8,196 bases of DNA from a virus (IMGVR_UViG_2693429623_000015); one strand, 5' to 3'. Shown: positions 5,740 through 6,656, counted from the first letter of the stretch. Numbers and translations: made by a program. Notes: generated by a model not told the origin, from the sequence alone.

Positions 5740-5763
5740 AAAAAACCCGCTCGGCGGCGGGTT
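5740..5763 (-). terminator. tR'-like rho-independent terminator downstream of the late promoter
   Basis: Minus-strand RNA: CCCGC-CGCCGA-GCGGG hairpin followed by U6 (forward A-run 5740-5745). It lies about 40 nt downstream of the predicted pause element and about 40 nt upstream of tRNA-Ile. Confidence 0.6.
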
Positions 5764-5798
5764 GTAGAAACTCTTCTAACGTCAGGCATAAAACGCCC

Positions 5799-5838
5799 AT
5801 CGTTATGACGAATTTACCACAGATTCCGGAAAAATCAA
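5799..5838 (-). promoter_or_regulatory. pR'-like late promoter with sigma70-dependent promoter-proximal pause element (Q engagement site)
   Basis: Minus strand: -35 TTGATT (5838..5833), 16-nt spacer, -10 TAAATT (5816..5811), 6 nt, then AACGAT-GGG (5804..5796). The TAAATT-N6-AACGATGGG arrangement matches the lambda pR' -10 and pause-inducing -10-like element as I recall it. It begins 5 nt after the Q stop codon. Confidence 0.6.
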
Positions 5839-5843
5839 CCTTG

Positions 5844-6656
5844 TTACCTAGTTACCTTTTTTAACTGCCGCTCAGCCCATGCTTCTTCAATATCAAACCG
5901 GGTCACCAGCGCATCATAGAATTTCTTAACTGTTTTTTCCCATGACGCGCGTGTTATCTGGTTTGTCACCTCGCATATAGCATTAAATGCCTCCGTTGAT
6001 GGTAGTCTTTCATAGCCACGACCACCACAACGCTGGCAGTCTCTGATAACAGGCATACCACGTTTTACCGACTCTTCACGATGAATGGCGACACCACGCC
6101 CACGGCAATCCTTACAGGCGGTGGAAACCTCACCCTTTCCGCCACACTCCGGACAGGCAACTTTTACCACCTCCCTGACTTTTTTCCATTCTTCCCAGTA
6201 AGACGGATACACACCTTTCGTACACTTTGCCCATACCGGCGGCTTACCATCCGGATACTGGATCTTGTTTGTAAAAACCTCGCTTTCAATAAATTTTTTT
6301 CCGTGACAGCAGGGGCACTGTTTTTTGCTCGCCGCGCTACGGGCATAATCTTCAAACGCATACGAAGCCATAATACGCATCACTGCCGGTTTTATTTCTG
6401 CCGGGAGTTTTCTTAACGCCGCCACGCGATCACACCGACTGAGTGCATATTCTGTCAGCAATTCTGTTGCCCGCTCTCTGTCATTCATACTAATGCCCAT
6501 TTTCCCAAGGAACGCAGAAACCCCCATCTCAGCCCGATTCTGTGTCATGCCCTGCGCGGCCATCACATCAGTGATACTCAGCGCATCTTTCGACGTTGAG
6601 GCCGATGCATCAGTCANCACCTTTCGTACACTTTGCCCATACCGGCGGCTTACCAT
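5844..6656 (-). CDS. Q-like late antiterminator: second copy of 405-bp repeat unit plus unique C-terminal DnaJ-type zinc-finger region (quuQ-like). Frame is only continuous with the N-terminal segment if the N at 6617 is spurious
   Basis: Track ORF, 270 aa. The C-terminal part contains CPCCHGKKF, CPECGGKG, CKDCRGRG and CQRCGGRG, i.e. CxxCxGxG repeats as in the DnaJ Cys-rich domain. Assignment as Q is by position (after rusA, before pR'/tR'/tRNAs) and recalled similarity to prophage Q-family proteins. The ATG at 6656 is probably not the true start. Confidence 0.6.
   Translation of the reverse strand: MVSRRYGQSVRKVXTDASASTSKDALSITDVMAAQGMTQNRAEMGVSAFLGKMGISMNDRERATELLTEYALSRCDRVAALRKLPAEIKPAVMRIMASYAFEDYARSAASKKQCPCCHGKKFIESEVFTNKIQYPDGKPPVWAKCTKGVYPSYWEEWKKVREVVKVACPECGGKGEVSTACKDCRGRGVAIHREESVKRGMPVIRDCQRCGGRGYERLPSTEAFNAICEVTNQITRASWEKTVKKFYDALVTRFDIEEAWAERQLKKVTR

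Follow-up and report, generated by a model that had tools for sequence, protein, structure and literature searches.

We analyzed a viral DNA stretch of 8,196 nucleotides (nt) (IMGVR_UViG_2693429623_000015; referred to as the window), which carries on its minus strand the late region of a lambdoid Escherichia coli prophage. Our main conclusion is that the segment lying directly behind the gene of the antiterminator Q, from 5846 to 5740 on the minus strand, is very probably the cassette through which a Q of the lambda family acts on late transcription. This Q-utilization, or late-promoter, cassette comprises a promoter comparable to lambda pR', a -10-like pause element, and an intrinsic terminator comparable to lambda tR'. 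The evidence lies in the sequence elements themselves, in their identity with those of lambda, in their conservation, in the strict pairing of the promoter with one type of Q, and in the recurrence of the same arrangement beside other members of the Q family. The module is an ordinary textbook late switch, present in about half of the complete E. coli genomes, and it belongs to a class that had not been characterized before: our literature search found no characterization of the promoter of this class, nor of its relative behind the quuQ (ydfT) gene of the E. coli K-12 cryptic prophage Qin. All coordinates below are positions in the window.

Elements of the late promoter and comparison with lambda

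Reading along the minus strand, the TAA stop codon of Q (5846-5844) and five further nucleotides (CAAGG) precede the -35 hexamer of the late promoter, TTGATT (5838-5833). A spacer of 16 nt, TTTCCGGAATCTGTGG (5832-5817), contains an extended -10 TG (T5819 G5818), and is a candidate for the Q binding element (QBE). It leads to the -10 hexamer TAAATT (5816-5811), which is identical in lambda pR', and then, after a 6-nt gap of sequence CGTCAT (5810-5805), to the 9-mer AACGATGGG (5804-5796), in which a pause element and a discriminator follow one another. The match with lambda predicts transcription to start at A5804 (+1), so that AACGAT (+1 to +6, 5804-5799) would constitute the -10-like, sigma70-dependent pause element; the discriminator-like GGG next to it (+7 to +9, 5798-5796) is the same as the GGG that strengthens the pause at +7-9 in lambda (PMC5001585). 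The combination TAAATT-N6-AACGATGGG occurs a single time in the window even with two mismatches tolerated, compared to 0.01 occurrences expected on the basis of 200 shuffles.

Further along the same strand lies an intrinsic terminator, the putative tR' (5763-5740), made of a 7-bp stem, a 6-nt loop and a run of six T. Its G+C-rich hairpin, AACCCGC-CGCCGA-GCGGGTT (5763-5744), has five G-C pairs among the seven, and begins at +42 if A5804 is taken as +1; the T-run occupies 5745-5740. An RNA terminated at this site is predicted to be 65 nt long and to be made constitutively. Between promoter and terminator, the position of the pause can also be predicted. Pausing by RNA polymerase follows the consensus G-10 Y-1 G+1, and T17 and G18 of the window leader, together with G8, are compatible with it, which leads us to predict a pause at about +16 to +18 (A16 T17 G18, 5789-5787). 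The geometry of lambda gives the same answer, as the pause occurs there at +16/+17, downstream of the GGG described at +7-9 (PMC5001585).

A preliminary description of this DNA had listed the Q stop codon, TTGATT, 16 nt, TAAATT, 6 nt and AACGATGGG, and these positions and sequences turned out to be correct to the base. It had also stated that lambda pR' possesses the same -10 hexamer at the same distance from AACGAT, which is indeed what the lambda sequence (J02459) contains, and that a hairpin followed by U6 lies about 40 nt downstream, where we find it. Its overall interpretation, a lambda-like pR' with a sigma70-dependent pause element and tR' behind Q, is strongly supported by comparison, that is, by the assignment of Q to PF03589, identity with lambda, conservation, pairing with Q type and recurrence.

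In J02459, lambda pR' reads TTGACT-17 nt-TAAATT-TGACTC-AACGATGGG. The window and lambda therefore have in common the -10 hexamer TAAATT, the 6-nt gap, and AACGATGGG at +1 to +9; in both, moreover, a PF03589 Q stands directly upstream, and an intrinsic terminator precedes the late genes. They differ by one base of the -35 hexamer (TTGATT in the window, TTGACT in lambda), by the length of the spacer (16 versus 17 nt), by the extended -10 TG, which is present in the window and absent from lambda, and by the sequence found at the position of the QBE, which is unrelated in the two. The Q proteins differ as well, with 273 amino acids (aa) and a 68-aa Cys-rich insertion in the window class compared to 207 aa in lambda, and so do the terminated transcripts, predicted to be 65 nt long in the window. 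In lambda, the pR'-tR' terminated RNA, known as 6S, has 194 nt. These differences suggest that the geometry of Q loading may be somewhat different in the window class.

Conservation, recurrence and pairing with Q type

The Q of the window belongs to Pfam family PF03589 (1.5e-53), and is 30% identical to lambda Q from end to end. What directly precedes the module is the 3' part of the gene, 258 codons out of 273 (5844..6616, minus strand), cut at a single N at 6617; on the other side of this N, a second copy, about 95% identical, comprises codons 1-151 and ends at the N (6618..7071, minus strand). The intact 273-aa protein was taken from phage mEp460_ev081, in which the module segment is 99.5% identical to that of the window; the intact form of the gene was located at 2336-3157 of our locus L002. 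This protein matches the structure of lambda Q (PDB 7UBM) over residues 1-113 and 182-273. The two matching stretches are separated by a 68-residue Cys-rich insertion (CPCC..., CPECGGKG), which stands just before the lambda-type zinc ribbon and shows a sub-threshold match to DnaJ CXXCXGXG. In lambda, the zinc-ribbon arm contacts the QBE and the repositioned sigma region 4 (PMC9388147); judging from the placement of the insertion, it is this arm that would be enlarged in the window class.

A first link between promoter and protein comes from the spacer. When viral contigs were scanned for TAAATT-N6-AACGATGGG, two promoter classes were returned: all 36 loci with the lambda spacer have a 207-aa Q in front of it, and all 62 loci with the window spacer, TTGATTTTTCC[C/G]GAATCTGTGG, have a 273-aa Q. 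This strict one-to-one pairing between spacer and Q type is the expectation if the spacer is the site that Q recognizes. The lambda QBE is placed between the -35 and -10 hexamers, and the 16-nt spacer that occupies this place in the window is thus a candidate QBE for the 273-aa Q class. That lambda Q binds promoter DNA at the QBE is established, and its structure shows it on this element (PMC9388147).

Conservation was examined at two depths. Eight E. coli and phage copies were aligned, in which the 3' ends of Q have diverged by about 15%, and 31 unique sequences of the class were compared in IMG/VR. In both sets, the segment from -35 through about +32 is almost invariant, and the variable parts are the same, namely 8 nt on the 5' side of the -35 hexamer, 6 nt on the 5' side of +1, positions +33 to +40, and the loop of the terminator. 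The -35 hexamer TTGATT does not vary in either of the two sets, and the spacer has one variable position across the 31 unique sequences. In the aligned copies, conservation of the module exceeds that of the flanking synonymous sites.

Statistics on the hexamers were obtained from 130 loci of the class, collected by a scan keyed on the spacer alone. The -10 hexamer is TAAATT in 121 of them. Within the pause hexamer, +1, +2, +5 and +6 are nearly invariant, as is the GGG that follows, and +3 and +4 are variable; the variants are often shifted toward TATAAT (AATGAT, AATAAT, AACAAT, AACTAT), a pattern that is the one expected of a -10-like element. The T-run of tR' ends at +65 in 113 of the 130 loci. 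As for the stem of tR', the changes observed within the class are one-sided only, and the stem is retained in the diverged copies; support for tR' comes from other genera, where unrelated terminators sit at the same place.

The module is widespread: of the 5426 complete E. coli genomes, 2519 carry it, with up to five copies per genome. The end of its T-run, at 5740, coincides with a sharp mosaic boundary beyond which the sequence is replaced by unrelated modules; this boundary was seen at the position equivalent to 5740 in six of our comparison loci (L003-L008) and in the IMG/VR loci. At least four unrelated types of cargo follow an identical Q-pR'-tR' segment: the tRNA block present in the window, a hypothetical gene with a DNA methyltransferase, TerB/DUF3927, or the holin directly.

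To look beyond E. coli, a survey of the family was seeded with Q proteins rather than with DNA motifs, and covered some 25 enterobacterial species, including members of Enterobacter, Erwinia, Pectobacterium, Edwardsiella and Yokenella. On inspection of the sequences of 29 Q-family loci of other species, we count at least 26 in which a -10 hexamer is followed, after a gap of 6 nt, by AACGATGGG or something very close to it, and then by a hairpin with a T-run. The terminators found after the pause element are unrelated in sequence among these loci. In other genera, where the neighbouring Q is 49-58% identical, the spacer is largely retained, as TTTCCCGAAnCTGTG.

The relative present in E. coli K-12 deserves a separate description. 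In the cryptic prophage Qin, the Q encoded by quuQ (ydfT) has 250 aa and 40% identity to the window Q; it is of the same enlarged sub-type, with a DnaJ-like CXXCXGXG match and an insertion shorter than that of the window Q. Downstream of quuQ, the sequence reads TTGCAT-17-TAAAAT-TTTTTC-AACGATGGGC, and a terminator follows at about +60. The early transcribed region, GGGCtttgtATaCCcGACGTTAaGAA, is similar to that of the window, whereas the spacer, TTTTCAAAAAATATGGA, differs from it; the Q specificity of Qin is, therefore, presumably different from that of the window Q. The cargo also differs, as csp genes stand downstream in Qin.

Model of late switching and alternative explanations

The mechanism of the lambda cassette has been described (PMC9388147, PMC5001585), and by homology with it we propose a course of events for the window module, from the start site and the pause to termination, Q binding and read-through. 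RNA polymerase carrying sigma70 would initiate constitutively at about A5804, from TTGATT-16-TGG-TAAATT. Sigma region 2 would then re-engage the non-template AACGAT (+1 to +6), aided by the GGG (+7 to +9), and the scrunched complex would pause at about +16 to +18. When Q is absent, polymerase would escape and terminate at the tR' hairpin and its T6 (+60 to +65), releasing the 65-nt RNA. When Q has been made from the delayed-early transcript, after induction, it would bind the class-specific spacer and load onto the paused complex, and the Q-loaded complex would pass tR' and later terminators in the direction of nanS-p and the lysis genes.

Several observations count against this model. A generic sigma-70 promoter scan of the window did not list pR', because only 8 of the 12 consensus positions match; given the conservation of the site, this was judged to be a limit of the scanner and not the sign of an absent promoter. 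Lambda pR' contains a -35-like element for the repositioned sigma region 4, TTGACT, 1 bp upstream of the pause element; at this position the window has TTCGTC, with two matches out of six. Most members of the class have TTGCCC or TTGCTC there (three to four matches out of six), and Qin has TTTTTC, so that the -35-like element looks like a feature of lambda, and not like a strict requirement of the Q-lambda family. The repositioning of sigma region 4 in lambda has been described (PMC9388147). The window spacer, for its part, does not clearly resemble the lambda QBE in sequence, and it is for this reason by its position and by its co-variation with Q type that it points to Q binding. Among data sets from K-12, the RNET-seq supplements (PMC7876045) contain nothing on the Qin homologue, neither around 1,642,4xx nor under the genes next to it. 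Finally, the window Q is itself interrupted at N 6617, where one copy stops after codon 151 and the other, about 95% identical, sets in at about codon 17, with a break of the reading frame. Since lambda Q requires its native N-terminus for antitermination (PMC9388147), the Q encoded in cis would be deprived of it if this join were real. However, complete genomes whose promoter segment is 100% identical carry one intact 273-aa Q, right after rusA, and the split is therefore probably an assembly or scaffold join.

The interruption of Q leads to a first alternative, in which the module would be an inactive relic: the prophage would be defective and its Q broken, the cassette would do nothing but terminate, and the late genes would never be switched on. 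The repeated N-terminal segment and the frame break at 6617 speak for it, as does the fact that many of the E. coli copies reside in cryptic prophages, such as Qin of K-12. We nevertheless consider it quite unlikely. The junction consists of a single N, and the window contains four other stretches of N (2697-3470, 4157-4236, 4716 and 7554-7660), as is typical of assembly joins or masking; the intact 273-aa Q is present in the complete genomes with an identical promoter segment, and the module is also found, at 99.5% identity, in an isolated phage, mEp460_ev081. Moreover, a Q of the same class encoded by another prophage could act in trans in genomes that have up to five copies. It is also conceivable that the promoter hexamers are chance matches, the hairpin and T6 then being the terminator at the end of the early operon, or that the promoter serves the tRNAs and the hairpin acts as an attenuator. 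Apart from the silence of the generic promoter scan at the site, this would be favored by a weak match to the Rfam family Trp_leader (5737-5843, 25.5 bits for a gathering score of 41, E 0.089). We rejected the Trp_leader match: the frame that starts at the ATG at +4 is not conserved, as it runs through the terminator into the tRNA in the window, is broken by indels at +35 in relatives, and is two codons long in lambda. Chance hexamers are difficult to reconcile with a 15-base identity to lambda pR' at the same spacing (expectation 0.01), with conservation above that of the flanking synonymous sites, with the pairing with Q type, or with recurrence across genera, and a promoter devoted to tRNAs with the varied cargo that the module precedes, most of it without tRNAs. 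Such an explanation is, in our opinion, highly improbable.

A further proposal, which is compatible with a late switch, is that the 65-nt pR'-tR' transcript is a functional small RNA, possibly acting in trans. There is a precedent in StxS, a termination product of 258 nt from pR'-tR' of Shiga toxin (Stx) phages, which is processed to 74 nt, binds Hfq and can regulate; in addition, the 6S RNA of lambda is abundant in lysogens (PMC7547250). In Stx phages the short terminated RNA is a recognized by-product; StxS belongs to another Q family and another leader, and the window leader RNA is unrelated to it in sequence. Selection acting on the short RNA would account for the near invariance of +10 to +32 in the class, given that the DNA required for lambda Q action extends no farther than about the pause site. 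The leader is predicted to fold, with a z-score of -2.1, into a stem-loop at its 5' end, single-stranded A/G-rich sequence and a U-tailed terminator, and the frequency of the module among complete E. coli genomes (2519 of 5426) goes in the same direction. On the other hand, the Rfam search of the window gave no family above threshold for this RNA, and past about +27 the leaders elsewhere in the family vary widely, both in length and in sequence. As a result of this divergence, a trans-acting role shared by the whole family is unlikely, and a function of the short RNA, of the StxS type, seems to us rather unlikely in the window class too.

Within a late-promoter cassette of the Q-lambda type, the conserved leader may also hold one more element. 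A possible 5'-terminal stem-loop of the leader RNA (5778..5804, minus strand) is predicted, with pairing of AACG to CGUU and of GGGCGU to AUGCCU, and a stem-loop in the first 27 nt or so is predicted for K-12 Qin (our locus L129) and lambda as well as for the window. Most Q-family members have a conserved CGTT(A) at +19 to +30, and pairing is also predicted across most lineages of the family, L131-L183 included. In 22 of 26 lineages, the predicted pairing probability of the 5' end is at least 0.5, compared to about 0.35 for shuffled sequences. Combining the lineages gives a p of 3e-9 when all are taken, though they are not independent of one another, and a p of 0.004 when the seven with non-canonical hexamers are taken alone. 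Some deep lineages show matched changes in the 3' arm (AAGAATG/CATTCTT, AATGA/TCATT, AACAA/TTGTT, CAATGG/CCATTG). The shallow variants of the window class (AATAAT, AACAAT, AACTAT) are uncompensated, and for this reason we keep the stem-loop as suggestive. Furthermore, one lineage (L239) has no 5' pairing, searches for stems sequence by sequence, with G-U pairs allowed, were mostly not individually significant, and MAFFT was unable to align the 3' arm across lineages because loop lengths differ. Nothing was found in the literature on a 5' hairpin of the lambda 6S RNA. We therefore put forward only tentatively, as a more doubtful than probable refinement, that the pause element, once transcribed, pairs through its AACG (+1 to +4), together with the GGG, with two partners some 20 nt further on, the conserved CGTT(A) and C-rich sequence. 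Such a stem-loop would explain the conservation of +10 to +27, for which selection on the short RNA is the alternative. If it exists, the late mRNA and the abundant short RNA might have their 5' ends shielded by it, and it might also act once the RNA is threaded through the Q ring. In the window class, the 65-nt RNA would be constitutive in roughly half of E. coli strains, and might have a function of its own, as StxS has.

Downstream genes and significance of the module

The genes of the region succeed one another on the minus strand in the order rusA, Q, the promoter module, a tRNA with a CAT anticodon, a tRNA-Arg, an open reading frame (ORF) of 117 codons with no match in the family search (5337-4984), a second tRNA-Arg, STnc100, a gene for a SASA esterase (nanS-p-like), a holin of the P21 type (752-459) and DUF1327 (454-140). 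The CAT tRNA, the first gene after tR', was located by ARAGORN at 5625..5700 on the minus strand. ARAGORN names it tRNA-Met, and it is tRNA-Ile (ileZ) in PGAP and in the record of the 933W-type phage 06-3462. Before the nanS-p-like and lysis genes are reached, at least three further terminator-like sites are present on the same strand (4584-4567, 4362-4344 and 4119-4098).

A second promoter-like sequence, TTGCGG-17-TATTAT (5709..5737, minus strand), is found between tR' and the tRNA block. It is homologous to a feature annotated as 'pT; putative tRNA promoter' in phage 06-3462, the homology extending over the 40 nt that separate tR' from the first tRNA; it directly abuts or overlaps the end of the tR' T-run, and lies 9 nt upstream of the tRNA. 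Because this pT-like promoter precedes them, the tRNAs probably have a promoter of their own, and are probably not strictly dependent on Q.

Another small RNA match lies on the minus strand at 4522-4333 (STnc100, Rfam RF02076, 123.6 bits). A second STnc100 fragment, corresponding to the 3' end, is present at 4095-4120 on the same strand; the run of N at 4157-4236 lies between the two, and both matches terminate in a terminator-like hairpin. STnc100 has been described as a stand-alone family of prophage small RNAs. On the plus strand, a 111-aa ORF (3728-4063) shares 98% identity with a protein whose annotation is anti-adapter protein IraM; it is flanked by STnc100 and the nanS-p-like gene, and runs antisense to the late transcription unit.

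The preliminary description had proposed that every gene downstream of tR' on this strand would be expressed only through Q-mediated antitermination. This appears reasonable for nanS-p and the lysis genes, and is overstated for the tRNAs, which have the putative pT, for STnc100, which is a stand-alone family, and for iraM, which is on the opposite strand. Stx phages of the 933W/H-19B type (Q21 family) present the same order of Q, constitutive pR', tR', tRNAs, cargo and lysis genes, and their tRNA block with pT is 93-95% identical to that of the window. By contrast, the Q of 933W-type phages is PF06530, a family unrelated to PF03589, and alignment revealed no sequence similarity between their pR'/pause region and the window module, so that the alignment to 933W that had been recommended gave nothing.

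The present analysis assigns coordinates, at the level of single bases, to the late switch of E. coli prophages with a 273-aa Q, which are a very common class. As this switch is unmarked in genome annotation, the coordinates should be useful for annotating it, and can serve to predict which prophage cargo is induction-dependent, be it nanS-p, tRNAs, lysis genes or, in related phages, toxins. Within the Q-lambda family, the pause element AACGATGGG and its distance to the -10 hexamer are kept while the spacer follows the Q subtype, and the spacer variants therefore constitute natural specificity variants for studies of Q loading.

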